From assembly GCA_030390025.1 (NCBI GenBank), contig CM059432.1, positions 50,966,001 through 51,030,000 of the forward strand: a DNA stretch of 64,000 nt, written 5' to 3'. The notes beneath the pieces were generated by a model, which ran no database searches, was not told the origin of the DNA, and saw nothing but the letters and a program-made list of their open reading frames with translations. Below, piece after piece: positions 2,410 to 64,000 of the stretch. The stretch is from Squalus acanthias. Taxonomy: Eukaryota. How positions within the stretch are numbered: position 1 is the first letter of the stretch; every line of letters starts with the position of its first letter. Position numbers and translations under genes: made by a program.

Positions 2410-3221
2410 AAGAGATTTACCATTATGGGTTGACTCCATTTACATGAAGTGGATCAGGCTGCCAGCAGGCCTTAAATGAGACTGATGCTTTTTTTGGGAG
2501 GATAATGCAGGTGTAGATTTTTTGCGATGGATTTAAGGCAGTAACCTCTAAGAACCCATTTTATTCCATTTACCACCCTGAACCTGCCCCAAAATGGACA
2601 GTAATTTGGAAGAAATCAGAGGCCATTGTTTCCTGGGGGATGGCATAAGGTGAAAACAGAGGGAAATAGTAGGATCCAGCTCGCTCATATAGCGGGACAG
2701 GCTGAGTGGGGCAAAATCAATGTTGGGTTCAGTGGAGCAAAATCCTGATACGGTTTTTGTGACAGGGTTTTGGCAGAATGCCTCCTCGCGTAATTTTCCT
2801 TTTATCAGCGCAAAACTACCCAAAAGTGTAAGTGCTGTAATATAAATAAGGCTGTAAACACACCTTCCAAGGCAGGGAACACCACCTCACGAAAGTTCTT
2901 TAATTCATTGCCTCTAGGACCAATTTGACAGAGCTATCATTTTGTTCTGGCCATAGACCAGATACAGAAACATACAGAATTATACGGCTAGATGTAACGA
3001 TTGTATGTGTTCTGCAGGGATTTCGAACAAATTAATTTCCAGCCCCTGACCAAAACTGGATCATTTCAGGTGCCATATTTTACAAATTTGGGTCTGCTAT
3101 AGGTACCTTCTTAAGTTCAGTGTTGCAGTTGCTCTCATAAGTGGTCTAAACATCGTACTTTAATGGGAGTTGACTGAATGCCCTATATCTACTTATGTGA
3201 TACTGTAACCTTTTAAAAAAT

Positions 3222-3535
3222 TTGTTTATGGGATGTGGGCGTCGCTGGCAAGGCCAGCATTTATTGCCCATCCCTAATTGCCCTTGAGAAGGTGGTGGTG
3301 AGCCACCTTCTTGAACCGCTGCAGTCCGTGTGGTGAAGGTACTCCCACAGTGCTGTTAGGGAGGGAGTTCCAGGATTTTGACCCAGCGACGATGAAGGAT
3401 CAGCGATAAACTTCCAAGTCAGGATGGTGTGTGACTCGGAGGATAACTTGGAGGTGGTGGTGTTCCCATGCACCTGCTGCCCTTGTCCTTCTAGGTGGAA
3501 GAGGTCATGGGTTTTGGAGGTGCTGCCGAAGAACC
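3222..3535 (-). mobile_element. LINE-B 3' fragment
   Basis: Close match to 53335-53645. Confidence 0.9.
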
Positions 3536-4908
3536 TGGGTGAAGGGGGAGCGTAACAATAATGCTCCCTTATGAACTGAATTCTGGGCAGTGAGGATCTC
3601 TGAAATTTAAAGGGTCATGCACATTGAAGCAAGGCAAAATAAAATGCACTGATTCAATACCTTTTTCAGCCCTTTCTATCTTTTAAATATTGATTATTTG
3701 TTAAAAGAAGTTCCAAATGTCAATATTCAGCACTTAAAGCTGAATTACCTTCCTTAACTCAACAAATAGGAAAACTGCCTCAGCACTACAGCAAATGGCT
3801 CAGCAAGCCAGGGAAGGGGCACCCAGGGTCTCACACGCAGCACTCCAGCTTTGTCAACACTGCAAGACTGACTTGTGTCAGCTTCACCTCTGACCTCTGA
3901 GCGGTTCGAATCGCTCCCACTCCCTTGGTTCTAGACCTTGGACTTATTTGGGGGTTGTGACAAAAGGTGCAGCAGACAACTGAGTTTGATGAAAGAACTT
4001 CAATCTTTATTAAAAAGGTAAAACACAAATAATAGCACTCTTAATACTCTAAAGGTGGGGAACACTTCGGTACAAGCGAGGGAAATGACAGTAGAACAAT
4101 ACTTCACCCCTCCCAACCCCACTTTACTAGCTAAGTTAGGTTTTGAAGGACCAGGGATAATGCTCACCAATCCTTTGACAGTTGAGCTAAATCGCGGTTT
4201 TGGGGTTTGCTGTTTATGGTGGTCAGTGTCTGCCGTACCCCATACGCGGTAGAGGACTTCACCTGCATATCTGGTCAGTCTTCGCGAGTCCGCTGATGCG
4301 GTAGGGTGTCGTTTTGGATCTATCTGGTGAGTGCCCAATTTCTTTGGTTTAACAGTAGGGTTTAGAGTCTTTGGGGAAAATATTACCCAGGGGTAAGTCA
4401 GGAGTAGATTGTAGAGTGGCAACTTTGCGGTTCTTCAGGTTTTCTTCCCTTGAGTTGGTCTTTGTTGGTCGCGGTGGCCTGCTATTACCCGGTCAGTTGG
4501 GGGTAATATGCGGTTGTTGGTTACTTGAGGCCTTTGGTTTCCGCGATGGTTTTAGGCCTTGTCTAGTGTGTCGGTCAACCTCGTGGAGCTGTCGGTGACT
4601 TGTTGCTGCTTGTTGCTCCAGGTGACTGTGTTGGGACCGTTGTTGGAGGTCCGTCGAGGTGGTATCTTCGCAAGCTGGACTCAGGTGTGTCTGAGTGGTG
4701 AGCGATGCCGACTCGCTTCCAGCTCGGCTTGTCTTCTTCCTTGCTTCTTCTTCTTCTGATGACCACTGACTTTGAACTGCTTAACGGGCCTTCAATTATA
4801 CGGAATTGAAGTGGCCTTATCTACCCGCCAAATCTACTCAGTTCATTGTCTGGTTTTGGCGGGCTCGTAAATCGGTAACGACTTACTAGCGTGTTAACTG
4901 TTTTTTTA

Positions 4909-6743
4909 ACATAAGAACATAAGAACATAAGAAATAGGAGCAGGAGTAGGCCAATCAGCCCTTCGAGCCTGCTCTGCCATTCAATAAGATCATGGCTGAT
5001 CTGATCCTCACCTCAAATCTAAAGAACACAAGAAGTAGGAGCAGGACCTGGCCACTCAGCCCCTGGGCCCGCTACGCCACCCACAGGGCCTCGACCGATC
5101 CGATCTCAGCCTCATGTCCAATTTCCTGCCCGCTCCCCATAACCCCTAATTCCCTTTACTTCTAGGAAACTGTCTATTTTTGTTTTAAATTTATTTAATG
5201 ATGTAGCTTCCACAGCTTCCTGGGGCAGCAAATTCCACAGACCTACTACCCTCTGAGTGAAGAAGTTTCTCCTCATCTCAGTTTTGAAAGAGCAGCCCCT
5301 TATTCTAAGATTATGCCCCCTAGTTCTAGTTTCACCCATCCTTGGGAACATCCTTACCGCATCCACCCGATCAAGCCCCTTCACAATCTTATATGTTTCA
5401 ATAAGATCGCCTCTCACTCTTCTGAACTCCAATGAGTAGAGTCCCAATCTACTCAACCTCTCCTCATATGTCCACCCCCTCATCCCCGGGATTAACCGAG
5501 TGAACCTTTTTTGTACTGACTCGAGAGCAAGTATGTCTTTTCTTAAGTATGGACACCAAAACTGTATGCAGTATTCCAGGTGCGGTCTCACCAATACCTT
5601 ATATAACTGCAGCAATACCTCCCTGTTTTTATAATCTATCCCCCTAGCAATAAAAGCCAACATTCCGTTGGCCTTCTTGATCACCTGCTGCACCTGCATA
5701 CTAACTTTTTGATTTTCTTGCACTAGGACCCCCAGATCCCTTTGTACTGCAGTACTTTCCAGTTTCTTGCCATTAAGATAATAACTTGCTCTCTGATTTT
5801 TCCTGCCAAAGTGCATAACCTCACATTTTCCAATATTGTATTGCATCTGCCAAATCTCCGCCCACTCACCCAGCCTGTCTATATCCCCTTGTAGGTTTTT
5901 TATGTCCTCCTCACTTTCTACTTTCCCTCCCATCTTTGTATCATCTGCAAACTTTGATATGTTACACTCGGTCCCCTCCTCCAAATCGTTAATATAGATT
6001 GTAAAGAGTTGGGGACCCTGCACCGACCCCTGCGGAACACCACTGGCTACTGCTTGCCAGTCCGAGAATGAACCATTTATCCCAACTCTCTGCTTCCTGT
6101 TAGATAACCAATCCTCCACCCATGCCAGAATATTCCCCCCAATCCAGTGATTTTTTATCTTGAGCAATAATCTTTTATGTGGCACCTTGTCGAATGCCTT
6201 CTGGAAGTCTAAATACACTACATCCATTGGTTCCCCTTTATCCACCCTGTACGTTATGTCCTCAAAGAACTCAAGCAAATTTGTCAGACATGACTTCCCC
6301 TTCATAAAGCCATGCTGACTTTGTCCTATTAAATTATGTTTATCTAAATGTTCCGTTACTGTCTCCTTAATAATAGACTCCAAAATTTTACCCACCACAG
6401 ATGTTAGGCTAACTGGTCTATAATTTCCAGCCTTCTGCCTACTACCCTTTTTAAATAAGGGTGTTACATTAGCAGTTTTCCAATCTGCCGGGACCTTTGC
6501 TGAGTCCAGGGAATTTTGGAAAATTATTACCAAAGCATCCACAATCCCTACTGCCACTTCCCTCAAGACCCTAGGATGTAAGCCATCAGGTCCAGGGGAT
6601 TTATTCGCCTTGAGTCCCATTATTTTACTGAGTACCAATTCCTTAGTGATTTTAATCGTATTTAGCTCCTCCCCCCCTAGAGCCCCCTGTTTGTCCAGTG
6701 TTGGGATATTCTTAGTGTCCTCTACCGTAAAGACTGAAACAAA
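4909..6743 (-). mobile_element. Young CR1 LINE, 5'-truncated
   Basis: (TTCTTATG)n tail at 4909-4935; uninterrupted RT frame. Confidence 0.97.
5112..6743 (-). pseudogene. CR1 ORF2 reverse transcriptase, stop-free but 5'-truncated (no endonuclease)
   Basis: About 543 codons with KSPGPDG, NYRPVSLTS, QHGF, YLDFQKAFDKV, GVPQGS, FADDTK; the ORF-track start lies in flanking DNA. Confidence 0.95.
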
Positions 6744-33876: not shown

Positions 33877-33894
33877 ATGGTATTAATTTTTTTT

Positions 33895-34797
33895 AATTCA
33901 TTCTTGGGATGTGGGCGTCACTAGCAAGGCCAACATTTATTGCCCATCCCTAATTGCCCTTGAGAAAGTCGTGGTGAGCCGCCTTCTTGAACCGCTGCAG
34001 TCCGTGTGGTGAAGGTACAGTGAATTGGGGCTGGATTTTATCAATGGGGGTGCGTTGGGGGCGGGACTGCTGGTTGTCGGGTTTCAGTCCAGCCCCCAAT
34101 GACGTCTGGCCAACCCACGTTATTTTCCCTTGATTGACCTTGTTAAGCCCGCCCTGCGAGCTTAGCAGGCCAATTAAGGGAAAGCCGGTGACAGAGAACC
34201 CCAAGGGTTGAAGCCTGCAGGAAGAAACAAAGGTAAGTAAACTTTTTCTAACACTTTCTACTCACCTCCCATATTTACCTCTCCACACTTGCACCCATCA
34301 CTCACCTCCACAGCGCACTTTTCGGCCCCTCTGACCCCCACAGACCCACTGCTCGCCTCGCTGACCCTGGCGGGGTTTCCCGACGTCGGGAAGCCGGCAC
34401 TCGTGTTGGTAAAATGGGGATAAGCCTCTTAACTGCCTGTTAACTACCTGTTAAGTGGCAGTAATCCCCTTCCCTCCTCGAGGAGACAGGTCCCTGTGCG
34501 AGTCGGGGACCCGCCTCCCGGGAAGATGGCACAGAGGCAGGTTGGGAGCGGGTTTGGTACCCGCTCCCAGTTTCTGCCATTTTCCCAGCAGTCCCACCTC
34601 CAAACCCGCCTCCCCAGAGCTGGCAAAATTCCCCCCATGGTAGCGGTTTGGTACAACTGAGTGGCTTGCTAGGCCATTTCAGAGGGCAGTTAAGAGTCAA
34701 CCACATTGCTGTGGGTCTGGAGTCACATGTAGGCCAGACCAGGTAAGGACAGCAGATTTCCTTCTCTAAAGGACATTAGTGAACCAGATGGGTTTGA
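33895..34797 (-). mobile_element. Bipartite deletion derivative of LINE-B (5' leader plus 3' tail), split by a MITE
   Basis: 33895-34018 matches the LINE-B 3' end; 34640-34797 matches the LINE-B leader at 58602-58900. Confidence 0.8.
34028..34636. mobile_element. Harbinger MITE related to 13394-15094
   Basis: Ends GGGCTGGATTTT / AAAATTCCCCCC; left interior is an inverted homolog of 14940-15094. Confidence 0.8.
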
Positions 34798-52559: not shown

Positions 52560-53324
52560 ATCATAGAATCAGAATGATACAGCACTTCTGAAGGGCAATT
52601 AGGGATGGGCAATAAATGCTGGCCTTGCCAGCGATGCCCACATCCCAGGAACGAAAAAAAAAGCAAGGACTTTATGCTAAACCTTTATAAATCATTGGTT
52701 AGGCCCCAGCTGGAGTATTGCCTCCAATTCTGAGCACTACACTTTAGGAAGAATTTCAAGGTCTTGGCGAGCCAGTTGGCCCATCGTGCCTGTGCTGGCT
52801 CTTTGAAAGAGCAATCCAATTAGTCCCACTCCCCTGCTCTTTGCCATAGCCCTGCAAATTTTTCCTTTTTAAGTATCTATTCAATTCCCTTTTGCAAGTT
52901 ATTATTGAATATGCTTCCACCACCCTTTCAGGCAGTGCATTTCAGATCATGACAACTCAGTGTGTAAAAAGAAATTCTCTTCATCTCGCCTCTGGTTCTT
53001 TTGCCAATCTGTATCCTCTGGTTGCCGACCCATCTGCTGATGGAAACAGTTTCTCCCTATGTACTCTATCAAAACCCTGCATGATTTTGAACACCACTAT
53101 TAAATCTCCCCTTAACCTTTTCTGCTCTAAGGAGAACAACCCCAGCTTCTCTAGTCTTGCCACGTAACTGAAGTCCCGCATCCCTGGTACCATTCTAGTA
53201 AATTTCCTCTGCACCCTCTCCAAGACCTTGAAATTCTTCCTAAAGTGTAGTGCTCAGAATTGGAGGCAATACTCCAGCTGGGGCCTAACCAATGATTTAT
53301 AAAGGTTTAGCATAAAGTCCTTGC
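52560..53324 (-). mobile_element. CR1 3' fragment carrying an inverted templated insertion
   Basis: ORF 52981-53223 (LEQKRLRGDL); 3' UTR ATACAGCAC...GGCCC split by 52584-52771. Confidence 0.88.
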
Positions 53325-53403
53325 TTTTTTTTCCGTTCCTGGGATGTGGGCGTCGCTGGCAAGGCCAGCATTTATTGCCCATCCCTAATTGCCCTTCAGA
53401 AGT
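52584..53403. repeat. About 188-bp inverted repeat (52584-52771 vs 53216-53403)
   Basis: Arms are reverse complements with about 3 mismatches. Confidence 0.95.
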
Positions 53404-54473
53404 TGGTGGTGAGCCGCCTTCTTGAACCGCTGCAGTCCTTGTGGTGAAGCTACTCCCACAATGCTGTTAGGGAAGGAGTTCCAGGATTTTGACCCAGCAG
53501 CGATGAAGGAACGGCGATATATTTCCAAGTCAGGATGGTGTGTAACTTGGAGGGGAACTTGGAGGTGATGATGTTCCCATGCGCCTGCTGCCCTTGTCCT
53601 TCTAGGTGGTAGAGGTCACGGGTTTGAGATGTGCTGACAAAGAAGCTTTTGCGAGTTGCTGCAGTGCATCTTGTAGATGGTACACACTGCAGCCACAGTG
53701 CGCTGGTGTGATGGAGGGAGTGAATGCTTAAGGTGGTGGATGGGGTGCCAACCAAGCGGGCTGCTTTGTCCTGGATGGTGTCGAGTTTCTTGAGTGTTGT
53801 TGGAGCTGCACTCATCCAGACAAGTGGAGAGTATTCCATCACACTCCTGACTTGTGTCTTGTAGATGGTGGAAAGGCTTTGGGGAGTCAGGAGGTGAGAC
53901 ACTCGCGGCAGAATACCCAGCCTCTGACCTGCTCTTGTAGCCACAGTATTTATGCGGCTGGTCCAGTTAAGTTTCTGGTCAATGGTGACCCCCAGGATGT
54001 TGATGGTGGGGGATTTGGCGATGGTAATGCCGTTGAATGTCAAGGGACGGTGGTTAGACTCTCGCTTGTTGGAGATTGTCATTGTCTGGCACTTGTGTGG
54101 CGTGAATGTTACTTGCCACTTATCAGCCCAAGCCTTAATGTCATCCCGGTCTTGTTGCATGCGGGCATGGACTGCTCCATTATCTGAGGAGTTGCAAATG
54201 GAACTGAACACTATGCAATCATCAGCGAACATCCCCACTTCTGACCTTATGATGGAGAGAAGGTCATTGATAAAGCAGCTGAAGATGATTGGGCCTAGGA
54301 CACTGCCCTGAGGAACTCCTGCAGCGATGTCCTGGGGCTGAGATGATTGACCTCCAACAACCACAACCATCTTCCTTTGTGTTAGGTATGACTCCAGCCA
54401 GTGGAGAGTTTTCCGTCTGCTTCCCATTGACTTCAGTTTTACTTGGGATCCTTGATGCCACACTCAGTCAAAT

Positions 54474-55873
54474 CTTCTTCTTCGGCAGTCCCTCGGAACC
54501 GAGGATGACTTGTTTCCACATTAAAAATGAGTTTGCAGGTGACTGATGAGTCCAATGCGGGACCTACAGTCTCCGTCACAGGTGGGGCAGACGGTGGTTG
54601 AAGGGGCCGGTGGGTGGTGTGCTTGGGTTGACGTGCGCTCCTTGTGCTGCCTGCGCTTGGCTTCCGCTTGCTCCCGGCGAAGAGACTCGAGGTGTTCAGT
54701 GCCTTCCCGGATGCTTCTCCTCCACTTTGTGCCGTCTTAGGCCAGGAATTCCCAGGTGTCGGTGGGGATGTTGCACTTTTTCAAGGAGGCTCTGAGGGTG
54801 TCCTTGAAGTGTTTCCTCTGCCCACCTGGGGCTCTCTTGCCGTGCCGGAGCTCCGAGTAGAGCGCTTGTTTTGGGAGTCTCGTATTGGGCATGCGGAAAA
54901 TGTGACCTGTCCATCGGAGCTGATCGAGCGTGGTCAAAGCTTCGATGCTGGGGATGTTGGCCTGAGCAAGAACACTGACGTTGGTGCATCTATCCTGCCA
55001 ATGGATTTGCAGGATCTTGCAGAGGCAGCGTTGGTGGTACCTCTCCAGTGCTTTGAGGTGCCTGCTGTACATGGTCCACGTCTCTGAGGCATACAGCAGG
55101 GCGGGTATCACTCCTGCTCTGTAGACCATGAGTTTAGTGCCGGGTTTGAGGTCCTGGTCTTCAAACACTCTCTTCCTCAGGCGACCGAAGGCTGCACTGG
55201 CACACTGAAGGCGGTGTTGGACAGTAGGCTTCCGAGGTATGGAAAGTGGTCCACGTTGTCCAAGGCCTTGTCGACGATTTTGATAATCGGGGGGCAGTAC
55301 TGTGTGGCGGGGGCAGGTTGGTAGAGGACCTTTGTCTTACGGATGTTTAGTGTAAGGCCCATGCTCTCGTACGCTTCGATGAAGGTGTTGACGATGGTTT
55401 GGAGTTCGACCTCCGAGTGAGCGCAGACGCAAGCATCGTCTGCATACTGTAATTCGACGACAGAGGATGGGACGACCTTGGATCTGGACTGGAGGCGACG
55501 GAGGTTGAACAGTTTCCAGTTTGTTCTGTAAATTAGCTCCACTCCAGTGGGGAGCTTACTGAGGGTGAGATGGAGCATTGCAGCAAGGAAGATCGAGAAG
55601 AGCGTTGGTGCGATGACACAGCCTTGCTTGACCCCGGTTCGCACGTGAATTGGGTATGTGGTGGAACCGTTGGTCAGGATCACGGCTTGCATGTCGTCGT
55701 GAAGCAGGTGGAGGATGGTGACAAACTTTTGAGGGCAACTGAATTTGAGGAGGACACTCCATAATCCCTCATGGTTGACAGTGTCGAAGGCCTTTGTGAG
55801 ATCAAAGAAGGCCATGTACAGCGGTTGGTGCTGTTCTCTGCATTTCTCTTGTAATTGACGTGCGGTGAAGATG
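54474..55873 (-). mobile_element. RTE-clade LINE, 5'-truncated, nested in LINE-B
   Basis: FFDLTKAFDTV, GVKQGCVIAP, LQYADD, C-terminal CRSRIGLISHL; (GAA)n tail; 3-bp TSD AAT. Confidence 0.95.
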
Positions 55874-56901
55874 AATGCTGCCTTGATGTCAAGGGCAGTC
55901 ACTCACACCACGCCTCTGGAATTCAGCTCTTTTGTCAATGTTTGGACCAAGGTTGTAATGAGGTCTGGAGCTGAGTGGTCCTGGCGGAACCCAAACTGAG
56001 CATCGGTGAGCAGGTTATTGGTGAGTAAGTGCCGCTTGTTAGCACTGTCGACGACTCCTTTCGTGACTTTGCTGATGATTGAGAGTAGACTGATGGGACG
56101 GTAATTGGCTGGATTGGATTTGTCCTGCTTTTTGTGGACAGGACAAACCTGGGCAATTTTCCACATTGTCGGGTAGATGCCAGTGTTGTAGCTGTGCTGC
56201 AACAGCTTGGCTAGAGGCGCAGCTTGTTCTGGAGCACAAGTCTTCAGCACGACAGCCGGGATGTTGTCGCAGCCCACAGCCTTTGCTGTATCCAGTGTGC
56301 TCAGCCGTTTCTTGATATCACGTGGAGTGAATCAAATTGGCTGAAGACTGGCTTCTGTGATGGTGAGAACCTCAGGAGGAGGGCGAGATGGATTATCCAC
56401 TCGTCACTTCTGGCTGAAGGTCATTGCAAACGTTTCAGCTTTGTCTTTTGTACTCATGTGCTGGGCTCCACCATCATTGAGGATGGGGATATTCATGGAG
56501 CCTCTTCCTCTGTTAATTGTTAAATTGTCCACCACCATTCACGACTGGATGTGGCAGGACTGCAGAGCTTTGATCTGATCAGTTGGTTGTGGGATCGCTT
56601 AGCTCTGTCTATAGCATGCTGCTTCCACAGTTTAGCATGCATGTGGTGTTCCCCAGGTTGGCACCTCATCTTTAGGTATGCCTGGTGCGGCTCCTGGCAT
56701 GCTCTTCTGCACTCTTCAATGAACCAGCGTTTGTTCCCTGGCTTCATGGTAGTGGTAGAGTGAGGGATATGCCGGGCCATGAGGTTACAGATTGTGGTGG
56801 AATGGAATTCTGCTGCTGCTGATGCCCCACAGCACCTCATTGATGCACAGCTTTTACCTGCGAGATCTGTTCTGAACCTATTCCATTTAGCACGGTGGTA
56901 G

Positions 56902-57818
56902 TGTTAGATTCGAATTTGGAGAAACTCTAGACGGAGACGGAATTGAGGACAAGAACAAAATTTATTAAAACAACTAAGAGAGACTTGTGCACAAGGGGAG
57001 CCACCCAGCTTCCTCAAGCTTGAGGTGTACTCACAAAGGAAAAACAGCGGTTCATTCAAGATATACAGTTCTATAAGGAACGCCCACCTACTACAGAATG
57101 GGGGCGTACACGTACAAACAACGTCACCACAGTTACTCTTTATTGGTTTCGGTGTTTAGTCACTCAACTGTTGGGCCCATCCCCTGAACTCAGGTGCCCC
57201 TCCCCTGCCCATGCTGGACACAGATGTTGGGAGTAACCCTACCTCCACATTCCTGTTGTTATTTCTTCCTCACTATAAGCATAGTTTATTGTTCGAGAGG
57301 ACCGGTTTTACCCTTAACTGCCGACCAAGCACAAAGCCACAGTGATTCATGTGTCCAGCGAACTCGTACCATGTTTGATAATTGGTACCCTTATCTCCTG
57401 GGAGGACAGGCCGTGCTTGGACAGTGACTCCACTCAGGCGCTGTGAATACACATCCCTAAGTTTAATTAGTGAAGAGACGCCTTGCAGCCTGCAAAAGTG
57501 CCTGTTCCTTGCATTTTACGATCCCCTTATCACTTTTACTGGTCTCTGATGTTCAATATTCGACCTCGCTTACATCCCTGCTATCTGTTCCCAGCTGCAT
57601 GTTGTCAGTCTCCGTTTTAATTAAGCCCCATCTTTGAATCTACAGCTATTCCTTACAAGTGCCTTTTTTATGAGAGGGTTAAACATAGTCAAGTATCCGA
57701 GAATTCTTTGGGAACAAGCTGAACCTTTCAGTGAGCTATTTCTTACAGTTACCTTCTTTGGGAGGGTTAAACCTAGCCAAGTATCCCAGAATTCTTTGGG
57801 AACTAGCTGGATCCTTCA
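56902..57818 (-). mobile_element. Solo LTR (917 bp) nested in LINE-B
   Basis: TG...CA ends; perfect 4-bp TSD GTAG; on the minus strand CCAAT (near 57142), TATA-like (near 57073) and AATAAA (56961-56966) occur in order. Confidence 0.9.
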
Positions 57819-58646
57819 GTAGTGCCCCATAACATGATGGAGGGTGTCCTCAGTGTAAAGACTTTGTCTCCACAAGAACTGTGCGATGGTCACTGCTACC
57901 AATACTGTCATGGACAGATGCATCTGCAACAGGTAGATTGGTGAGGACGAGATCAAGTATGTTTTTCCCTTGTGTTGGTTCTTTCACCACCTGCCGCAGG
58001 CCCAGTCTGGCAGCAATGTCCTTCAGGACTCGGCCAGCTCAGTCAGTAGTGGTGCTACCGAGCCACGCTTGATGATGAACATTGAAGTCCCCCACCCAGA
58101 GTATATTCTGTGCCCTTGCTACCCTCAGTGCTTCTTCCAAGTGGTGTTGAACATGGAGGAGTACTGATTCATCAGCTGAGGGAGGGTAGTAGGTGGTAAT
58201 CAGCAGGAGGTTTCCTTGCCCATGCTTGATCTGAAGCCATGAGACTTCATGGGTACCGGAATCAATGTTGAGGACTCCGAGGGCCACTCCCTCCCAACTT
58301 TATGCCACTGTGCTGCCACATCTGGTGGGTCTGTTCTGCCGGTGGGACAGAACATACCCAGGGATGGTGATGGAGGAGTCTGGGACATTGGCTGAAAGGT
58401 ATGATTCTATGAGTATGACTATGTGAGGCTGTTGCTTGACTAGTCTGTGGGACAGCTCTCCCAATTTTGGCACAAGTCCCCAGATGTTAGTGAGGAGGAC
58501 TTTGCAGGGTTGACTGGGCTGCGTGTGTCGTTGTCGTGTCTGAAGCTGGTGCCTAGGTTGATGCTGGGTGGTCCATCCAGTTTTATTCTTATTGTTTTTC
58601 TTAGCAGTTTGGTAGAACTGAGTGGCTTGCTAGGGCATTTCTGAGG

Positions 58647-58801
58647 ACAAAAGCAAAATACTGTGGATGCTGGAAATCTGAAATAAAAACTCTTAACTTT
58701 TTCCAGTTCTGACAAAAGGTCACTGACTTGAAACGTTAACTCTGATTCTCTCTCCACAGATGCTGCCTGACCTGCTGAGTCTTTCCAGCATTTTCTGTTT
58801 T
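58647..58801 (+). mobile_element. Penelope-like pLTR fragment with degenerate hammerhead, nested in the LINE-B leader
   Basis: TSD CATTTC(T/A)GAGG; CTGACAA-AAGGTCACTGACTT-GAAACGTTAAC. Confidence 0.78.
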
Positions 58802-59008
58802 CATTTCAGAGGGCAGTTAAGAATCAACCACATTGCTGTGGGCCTGGAGTCACATATAGCAGATTTTCTTCCACTAAAGGACATTAGTGAACCAGATGGG
58901 TTTATTACAACAAGCCAATATAGTTCTGTGAGTCACCATTACTGATACTAGCTTTTTATTCCAGATTTATATAATTAATTGAATTTAAATTCCACAGCTG
59001 CCGTAGTG

Positions 59009-59089
59009 GGATTTGAACTGCACATATACCCAATCATCCAAGGCTTCTGGATTACTAGTCCAGTATCACAACCACTATGCTACCATCCC
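59009..59089 (-). promoter_or_regulatory. tRNA-Ser-like Pol III type 2 promoter head of LINE-B
   Basis: A box TAGCATAGTGG (59072-59082); anticodon arm CTGGA-CTAGTAA-TCCAG (59047-59063); long variable region; B box GTTCAAATCC (59009-59018). Confidence 0.85.
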
Positions 59090-59651
59090 CAATGGATCTC
59101 ACACACCCAAGAAATGCAGCCTGCCCAGCCAGGGGGGGGGGGGGGGCGGGCAGGGGAGAAGGGGAATGAGAAGGAGGAAAAACACTGTCTCTTGATTTCA
59201 CACTGCCAGCCACCAGCTCCTCAAGATCGACCAACAAGGTCCCCAGTGAAAGTCAGCAGCCTTCCACCAGCTATGCTGCAGCCACTGGATAGCACTGCGT
59301 GACATCAGTAAGATAGGCAAAGGCACACACAAGACAGTCACTAAGGGAATGCATAAGTGTGATGAGTTGATTTCTTGATGTCATATTGGATGGATAGATG
59401 TATAAAGCTGGATTGGAATGCTTGCTTTGTGGTGGCTTTTATTTCAGCATTGTGGCCAAGAGGATGCTGTGATGGTCAATAACAGAGGGAAGGTAAGGTA
59501 TGTACAAATATTGAAAGGGGAATTGGGGTTGTGGTCACTGGTACCTCAGGCAGATGATTCTATCCCGGATATCCTGGCCAGAAAGGGGCTGTCTGGGTTG
59601 CTTCTTTCTTTCTGCTTCCTCCTCTGCTGTGTCGTCCTCTTCCCTCTGCGA

Positions 59652-63650: not shown

Positions 63651-63686
63651 GGGGGGGGCGGTGGAGGGAGGTGTAGTTTTTTAAAA

Positions 63687-64000
63687 TTTGTTTACGGGAT
63701 CAGGGCGTTGCTGGCAATGCCAGCATTTATTGCCCATCCCTAGTTGCCCTTGAGAAGTTGGTGGTGAGCCGCCTTCTTGAACTGCTGCAGTCCACGTGGT
63801 GAAGGTACTCCCACAGTGCTGTTAGGTAGGGAGTTCCAGGATTTTGACCCAGCAACGATGAAGGATCGGCAATATACTTCTAAGTCAGGATGGTGTGTGA
63901 CTTGGAGGTGGTGGTGTTCCCATGCGCCTGCTGCCCTTGTCCTTCTAGGTGGAAGAGGTCGCGGGTTTTGGAGTTGCTGCAGTGCATCTTGTAGATGGTA
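63687..64000 (-). mobile_element. LINE-B 3' fragment running off the window
   Basis: Close match to 53335-53680 with small deletions. Confidence 0.9.

Follow-up and report, generated by a model that had tools for sequence, protein, structure and literature searches.

Long interspersed elements (LINEs) are taken to be genes of RNA polymerase II (Pol II), whereas tRNA-derived heads define the non-coding short interspersed elements (SINEs). The A and B boxes of such heads recruit RNA polymerase III (Pol III), and vertebrate Pol III terminates at runs of four or more T (T4+). The subject of this text is a LINE family of Squalus acanthias whose members open, at the extreme 5' end, with a tRNA-related head containing A and B boxes and otherwise encode an APE endonuclease and a reverse transcriptase (RT). 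The family is abundant and fairly young, and one decayed copy of it lies at 59089/59090..53325 on the minus strand of a 64,000-nt stretch of contig CM059432.1 (assembly GCA_030390025.1, positions 50,966,001 to 51,030,000), which as a whole is called the window.

Small RNAs are known to occur fused to LINE sequence in chimeric retrocopies (the U6-L1 type), and these resemble the present elements in that Pol III-type RNA sequence lies 5' of a LINE. However, such chimeras are one-off events with variable joints and no propagation, whereas here one constant junction is present in every copy examined and occurs in subfamilies of differing age. UnaL2 is a LINE of the L2 clade with a single open reading frame (ORF). 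SINE-LINE pairs that share their tails include UnaSINE1/UnaL2, and the table of such pairs also names the HE1 SINE and the HER1 LINE of sharks and rays (PMC3747384). In pairs of this type a tRNA-related head bearing A and B boxes forms the exact 5' end and the short and long elements share a 3' hairpin tail, as in the present family, whose derivatives of ~400 nt fit the description fully. In those pairs, however, the partners share the tail, or the tail and a piece of the LINE 5' untranslated region (UTR), and the LINE is without a small-RNA head; here the LINE itself carries both head and body.

SINEs assembled from the 5' and 3' parts of LINEs, and bipartite non-autonomous LINEs that arise by internal deletion, have been described as well (Kojima, 2018; PMC5786205). 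In the available part of that paper the likeness to the present family lies in the joining of a LINE 5' part to a 3' part and in repeated internal deletion. There it is proposed that a template switch adds the head to an element that is transcribed by Pol II and has already undergone deletion, and a head on a coding LINE is not described in that part (PMC5786205). The head in the present family sits on the full-length coding element, unlike in that model, so that the deletions would follow the gain of the head. No tRNA-headed or Pol III-transcribed LINE was found in full-text literature searches, a scope outside which most subscription journals, Repbase and Dfam fall, and the tRNA-headed autonomous LINE lineage with SINE offspring is genuine and apparently undescribed.

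The tRNA-related head and its junction with the coding body

The genome searched comprises 3.7 Gb in 3882 contigs, with repeats that appear similar to those of cartilaginous fishes, and the counts rest on best-scoring candidates. Two samples of family copies were drawn from it. For the leader-selected sample the query was the head, leader and endonuclease start of the window copy, and the best 40 of 12,844 candidates were scored; for the head-selected sample the query was the head and body of another copy (L035), the best 40 of 3,931 candidates were scored, and 29 loci were cut out, one duplicated pair included. In the leader-selected sample, 38 of the 39 other copies have an upstream match to the SINE-like part (13 of them reach query position 13 or less), and the 39th (L011) has the body with a deletion. 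Similarly, 27 of the 29 head-selected loci run on into the LINE body, and the other two are the duplicated pair, which ends at element position 387. None of these 29 loci, the closest to the LINE-borne head among the best 40 candidates scored, is a short derivative.

Full-length copies begin at the head. The same first base is found in 28 of the 29 head-selected loci, which open with GGGAACGG or a one-base variant of it, have unrelated DNA upstream and reach a perfect A box 8 nt further on; the pair of A and B motifs is likewise present in 28 of the 29. The head-LINE junction recurs across the family and is thus supported as a family feature and not a chance juxtaposition. The shared exact 5' end likewise sits at the very position from which a type-2 Pol III promoter would be expected to initiate.

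In the window the head occupies 59007..59090 on the minus strand, as delimited by sequence reading, the Rfam tRNA model and the shared first base, and reading of the sequence places the A box TAGCATAGTGG at 59082-59072 and the B box AGTTCAAATCC at 59019-59009. The majority of 28 copies, built over the 5' 724 nt, starts with GGGAACGG and continues with the A box TAGCGTAGTGG at +9 to +19, which matches TRGCNNAGTGG, and the B box (G)AGTTCAAATCC follows ~53 nt downstream. The head is ~95 nt long. It is followed by an AT-rich and then mixed SINE-type body of ~230 nt (element ~96 to ~328), and the endonuclease starts with KVLLTNIWGL at element ~440, after an in-frame stretch rich in Arg and His. What had been described as a leader of ~400 nt is the SINE-type body of ~230 nt and a further ~110 nt (the Arg/His-rich stretch) that continue the endonuclease frame.

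The Rfam tRNA model, whose gathering score is 29, gives 21.7 bits (E 0.059; 601 nt) to a young copy (L044) and 13.6 bits (E 2.5) to the window head. All three of the D, anticodon and T arms are aligned, but the variable region contains an insert of 22 nt and the acceptor stem is poor. In both copies the triplet at the anticodon position is AGT, which does not agree with the tRNA-Ser(AGA) arm named earlier. ARAGORN calls no tRNA in the window. Its tRNA-Ile calls in 3 of 24 family loci are shifted in register, starting at element +23, and were taken as artefacts. Since the Rfam scores are below the threshold and ARAGORN is silent or shifted, the head is tRNA-related in the way that SINE heads are, and is not a tRNA gene. 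In the window copy itself the tRNA likeness of the head is weak.

The divergence of head and body from the sample majority bears on whether the head was gained once or repeatedly. The young copies were picked by head similarity, which biases the head values downward; most of them diverge by 1-4% in the head and 2-5% in the body. Older copies diverge by 6-9% and 5-7%, and the window copy by 13.6% and 7.7%, respectively. One young copy (L063) is an outlier in the body at 12.7%, and two others (L040 and L039) are intermediate between the young and older groups. As head and body divergence rise together, and as the closest relatives of the LINE-borne head are themselves LINE-borne, the head was inherited along with the coding body and not re-acquired.

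The 5' ends of 27 independent leader-selected loci, realigned to a young copy, fall at element positions 1 (five loci), 7 (two), 14, 15, 34, 38, 40, 40, 94, 111, 114, 132, 154, 197-206 (six), 247, 248 and 266. This spread is the usual pattern of LINE 5' truncation, extending into the head. Contigs (Logan) of four public runs (X1, X5, X8 and X18) were used for the shape of sequencing depth and for joints only, as they are uninformative on starts, strand and expression. In all four, depth drops from the 3' end toward the 5' end and rises again over the body and head. Plausible target duplications of 7-10 nt are seen in 3 of 9 copies (beside the head in L034 and L040, and 10 nt upstream in L039), and none was found in the other copies, the window copy included. 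When 31-letter words were sampled from a young copy, 22-82% of them recurred in public runs (X1-X23) from nine different organisms, which places near-identical family members in several related species.

Coding region, 3' end and short derivatives

The window copy measures 5765 nt as it lies and 3298 nt when joined. BLAST comparison with 29 further loci of the genome, followed by 12 longer stretches, finds three blocks that interrupt it, at 58801-58650, 57818-56904 and 55873-54474. Five uninterrupted copies (L033, L035, L036, L037 and L040), which measure 3259-3311 nt from the head to the A run, have alignments that jump exactly over these blocks, and another copy (L034) is colinear as well, but with one extra insert of ~190 bp. 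Since other copies pass over the three blocks, the joined 3.3-kb element is correct, and the colinear element of ~3.3 kb that had been proposed upon removal of three insertions matches these six copies. There is no ORF1 between the head and body and the endonuclease of the joined element, as had also been stated.

All parts of the window copy lie on the minus strand. By colinearity, the first part of the SINE-type body is at 58802..59006, where ~19 nt present in other copies have been lost. The end of the body and the Arg/His-rich in-frame stretch, delimited by sequence reading and the 28-copy majority, follow at 58504..58649, beyond the first insertion. The first block of the APE endonuclease region, beginning KVLLTNIWGL, is at 57819..58503 (Pfam on the homologous frame of L070, and colinearity). 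The linker region and the N-terminal part of the RT are at 55874..56903 (colinearity, and RVT_1 on the homologous frame of L040), and the remaining RT with the C-terminal region, which has a WNSLP-type end, is at 53385..54473, with the stop TAG at 53387-53385 (colinearity, Pfam and the C-terminal consensus of relatives). The 60-nt 3' end at 53325..53384 holds a nested hairpin and A8, according to folding, and is common to two short derivatives (L154 and L155).

The Pfam matches are to Exo_endo_phos_2 (E 4.7e-14) on the frame of L070 and to RVT_1 (E 4.2e-37) on that of L040. The family thus has the marks of an APE-type LINE, namely endonuclease and RT in one element and many 5'-truncated copies sharing the 3' end. 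With the domains and the 3' end in place, the order of APE endonuclease, RT, very short 3' UTR and A tail that had been given is upheld. A single ORF of roughly 940-980 codons encodes both enzymes. The majority of 29 copies has no stop over 464 codons, and that of 8 copies has one stop in 936 codons, a TGA where other copies read CGA; the ancestral ORF was accordingly open. No fully open copy was met among the best 89 of 681,463 candidates scored, in which the longest frames are 882, 803 and 793 aa. One copy that is 5'-truncated at element 221 (L153) retains a frame of 727 aa.

The only in-frame ATG before the endonuclease is at element 303, and it is in frame in 23 of 28 copies. After this ATG most copies, short derivatives included, meet two stops, TAG as the third codon and TAA as the ninth. 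In several copies one of these two positions reads as sense, and in L067 and L037 both do. In the window copy the ATG is at 58638-58636 and the TAG at 58632-58630, and the second stop of most copies reads TAC. An ATG at element 358, considered as the start of a short ORF that frameshifts into the endonuclease frame, was rejected; of 26 copies, 9 read ATA at this place and 23 have it outside the frame. At its other end the ORF closes with ...LLKGN*, ~60-70 nt before the 3' end. The 3' hairpin consists of GCTGGC CTT GCCAGC nested within GGGATGGGC..GCCCACATCCC; its folding energy is -23.7 kcal/mol (z -1.74), and 12 of 200 shuffles fold as well.

Single-ORF APE-RT LINEs of the jockey/CR1/L2 kind resemble the family in Exo_endo_phos_2 and RVT_1 and in the WNSLP-type C-terminal end. 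The best full-length relatives are 908-995 aa long and at most 49% identical, and one of them carries the source name 'from mobile element jockey'. The 80 relatives fetched differ from the present family in the absence of an upstream A/B pair, and all of them have T4+ runs. The pair of A and B motifs is found upstream of the ORF in 0 of 80 relatives from metagenome contigs, many of which may lack true 5' ends, and a lineage-specific gain of the tRNA-type head is supported. The only such pairs among the 80 loci are on one metagenome contig (L078), at about 6405-6458 (+) and in the last ~80 nt (-), both downstream of the ORF, which are probably tRNA genes or SINEs in the flank.

In the short derivatives the head and body are joined to the final ~85-120 nt of the element through a variety of deletion joints. 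A search for the end of the body followed, after 10-70 nt, by the start of the tail gives 539 exact matches in the genome, as against 0 for the reversed control. Several differing joints occur among the 100 matches listed, for example GTTGT|CAAGAAGG, GTTGTAT|AAGG and GTTGTAT|TCAAGAAGG, and among the same matches longer forms keep up to ~30 nt more of the LINE. Joints of the same kind are found in the contigs of the four public runs. In L154 and L155, element 1-328 is joined to 3202/3214-3299, giving ~400 nt with the head from base 1; the heads of these two are only 87-89% identical. Of the features of a tRNA-derived SINE, the full element shows the 5' head with A and B boxes, and only the ~400-nt derivatives are in addition short and non-coding. 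Repeated deletion of a headed LINE accounts better for so many independent joints than would a single SINE that lent its head to a LINE. Moreover, the absence of short forms among the 29 nearest relatives of the LINE-borne head argues against headed LINEs being repeated LINE-SINE chimeras.

Runs of T and the polymerase of the template

The raw 5765 nt of the window copy hold 10 T4+ runs, and all ten fall within the three insertions. The joined 3298 nt hold none, where base composition would give 5.5, together with 16 runs of four or more A (A4+); the manual count of zero T4+ and about 15 A4+ on the sense strand, with 5-6 T4+ expected, was thus close. Dinucleotide shuffles of the joined element expect 2.9 T4+, with P(0) = 0.043. 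The deficit extends to the family at large. With expectations from base composition, 82 family segments (120,936 nt, duplicates removed) have 13 T4+ runs as against 173.6 expected (ratio 0.075). Other LINE fragments of the genome (26 segments, 24,297 nt) have 86 as against 68.1 (1.26), the remaining DNA of the same sources (137,957 nt) has 779 as against 570.6 (1.37), and the ORF regions of 80 related LINEs on metagenome contigs (about 175,000 nt) have 1274 as against 1029.5 (1.24). Two rows of the listed T4+ runs are loci that were fetched twice. Shorter runs in the family sequence are less affected: T3 occurs 342 times as against 665.6 (0.51) and T2 2841 times as against 3227 (0.88), and A4+ are as common as expected (605 as against 587; 1.03).

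Among the other LINE fragments of the genome, 2 of 26 are free of T4+, the longest being 936 nt. The lowest ratio of the 80 relatives is 0.48, and none of their 42 regions of at least 2.4 kb is T4-free; these relatives are richer in T (0.21-0.35 as against 0.20 in the tRNA-headed family). The few T4+ runs of the family sit at differing places and none is recurrent, which implies masters without T4+ on the sense strand.

The deficit is seated in T-poor codon positions 1 and 3, in the preference for TTC over TTT (15 to 3) and in a shortage of T|T codon junctions, of which the majority ORF has 11 as against 24.8 expected. Equal synonymous usage on the majority ORF would give 5.2 T4+ (P(0) = 0.002). 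Shuffling synonymous codons of the majority ORF expects 1.91 T4+ (P(0) = 0.11), and shuffling codon order expects 1.80 (P(0) = 0.13). The family is depleted relative to other LINEs, but the codon-aware shuffles expect only ~1.9 runs. The T4+ deficit is unusual among LINEs and is statistically not decisive for one lineage.

That Pol III makes the full-length template RNA is the best reading of the sequence, and we give it about an even chance. In the proposed mechanism, TFIIIC and TFIIIB would bind the A and B boxes and Pol III would start at element base 1. As no T4+ terminator is met in 3.3 kb, the polymerase would read through the ORF and the short A run and stop at the first T run of the flank. 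The RT of the family would recognise the 3' hairpin and copy the RNA into a new site, as it would for the short derivatives. The protein may come from the uncapped RNA by an unconventional start, which is proposed because no in-frame AUG is usable in most copies, or else other copies, transcribed by Pol II read-through, may provide it in trans. The fuller proposition is that the lineage propagates from Pol III transcripts, a LINE having taken up a tRNA-type promoter, purged T4+ from 3.3 kb and repeatedly shed its ORF to give SINEs; this we hold more tentatively, at a little short of an even chance. A bolder form would be a two-polymerase cycle, with a Pol III template and protein in trans from copies read through by Pol II, and the stops at codons 3 and 9 of most copies would fit it. 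Of the original claim, that a coding retrotransposon was selected for Pol III read-through, the recurrent junction, the exact 5' end and the T4+ deficit are supported, whereas the codon-aware nulls weigh against the selection itself.

Several points weigh against transcription by Pol III. The codon-aware shuffles just given are one, and dinucleotide shuffles of single copies are another, as these expect 1.6-3.0 T4+ with P(<=observed) of 0.03-0.26. Since the depletion lies mostly in T-poor codons and in the avoidance of T|T junctions, composition could yield the deficit without selection for read-through; and since all 120 kb of copies belong to one lineage, they effectively amount to a single observation of a T4-free master. 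The 5' ends also cluster away from base 1, at element 197-206 (6 of 27 loci: L005, L011, L012, L015, L029 and L030) and at 34-40 (4 of 27: L018, L019, L021 and L023), where there could be pause sites of reverse transcription or alternative RNA starts. An AATAAA hexamer situated ~45 nt upstream of the 3' terminus, and in some copies also right at it, would fit Pol II 3' processing, and the tRNA-model scores of the heads fall under the gathering score. Moreover, Pol III is not known to make natural transcripts that are several kb long, and translation of uncapped RNA is inefficient.

Many of these points would be natural in an ordinary Pol II LINE, whose tRNA-derived SINE-type module became a 5' UTR and whose lack of T runs comes from T-poor, C-ending codon usage. 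This is the main rival account, which we consider possible, though rather less likely. The module may have been gained through one template switch or through recombination with a SINE sharing the 5' UTR, and it may form part of a Pol II promoter inside the element, a function that B2 SINEs are able to serve. On this account the zero T4+ is unremarkable by the codon-aware shuffles, the depletion of T3 as well as T4+ suggests a general avoidance of T runs that is not specific to T4, and the hexamers near the 3' end and the secondary 5'-end clusters find a place. The CpG-rich stretch after the body likewise resembles the 5' regions of LINEs and decays fast (leader divergence 1-15%). However, the exact 5' end 8 nt before a perfect A box, which a type-2 Pol III promoter predicts, would be a coincidence. 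Neither the other LINE fragments of the genome nor any of the 80 relatives, long ones included, has such a T4+ deficit, and the shortage of T|T junctions points to avoidance beyond codon choice.

It is improbable that the head acts instead as a signal for RNA processing, in which host Pol II would read through the element and RNase P would cut at the tRNA-like fold to make the exact 5' end. Ribozymes define the 5' end of R2-type elements in an analogous manner. A single exact 5' end at the place of a mature tRNA 5' end, and the D, anticodon and T arms recognised by the tRNA model, would agree with such cutting, which would also explain how an element without a usable promoter persists. Yet the acceptor stem is poor in the Rfam alignments, no reason is offered for the T4+ deficit, and the short derivatives, which bear this head too, have the appearance of ordinary Pol III SINEs. 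Finally, that the headed copies are repeated accidents, dead-end chimeras made when the RT switches from headless LINE RNA to abundant SINE RNA in a shared 5' region, is very improbable, for although the SINE-like derivatives are numerous and share element 1-328 with the LINE, sequencing depth over the head and body exceeds that of the neighbouring leader bin several-fold in each of the four public runs, and small RNA-LINE chimeras have precedents, none of 39 leader-containing copies has another 5' sequence, the junction is single and constant and not variable, the 27 closest relatives of the LINE-borne head are all LINE-borne with no short derivative among the 29 loci, so that LINE heads form a lineage of their own, and the ages of head and body go together.

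Further copies in the window and the meaning of the lineage

The three insertions of the window copy lie on the minus strand and are skipped by other copies. The first (58650..58801) is an unrelated 152-bp repeat flanked by CCTCTGAAATG and CCTCAGAAATG, an 11-nt target duplication with 1 mismatch, and all other copies skip it. Its opening words are the same as the DNA just upstream of the head of L046, and it is a common repeat of the genome; the Penelope-like label it had been given could not be confirmed. The second (56904..57818) is a 915-bp LTR-like (long terminal repeat) block with TG..CA ends and a target duplication of 4-6 bp. The third (54474..55873) is a 1.4-kb fragment of another RT-bearing LINE family, with a tblastn match to RT at 55213-55873 and a counterpart in L002 that is 91% identical; its assignment to the RTE clade could likewise not be confirmed.

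Other members of the family are scattered over the window. At 33888..34795 (minus strand), BLAST finds a 5'-truncated body (element 185-339) and a tail (3169-3299) with ~620 bp of GC-rich unrelated DNA between them, which reads as a short derivative of the LINE family, probably one with an insert. A 5'-truncated tail copy at 3219..3542 (minus strand) covers element 2968-3292 at 94% identity. Further tail copies lie at 63678-63980 and, with 70% identity, at 18-368 on the minus strand, and at 52585-52662 on the plus strand. Elsewhere in the genome, on contig C1560, one 5'-truncated copy occurs three times (L006, L007 and L008) with identical flanks at a spacing of ~14-16 kb, which indicates a tandem segmental duplication.

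The family crosses the divide between Pol II LINEs and tRNA-headed non-coding SINEs. By its architecture alone, a coding element and its SINEs share one head, and the SINEs come about by repeated internal deletion. This gives a concrete and testable route of SINE origin, which departs from the usual model, where a LINE first undergoes deletion and only then gains its head. Since young copies lie within 1-6% of the sample majority in head and body (with one outlier in the body), the question is directly testable on natural copies. If propagation from Pol III transcripts is true, the lineage would be a surviving intermediate in the birth of SINEs. The 3.3-kb RNA would then be by far the longest natural product of Pol III, and a protein-coding one too, which would raise the questions of how it is translated independently of a cap and how the host silences it.

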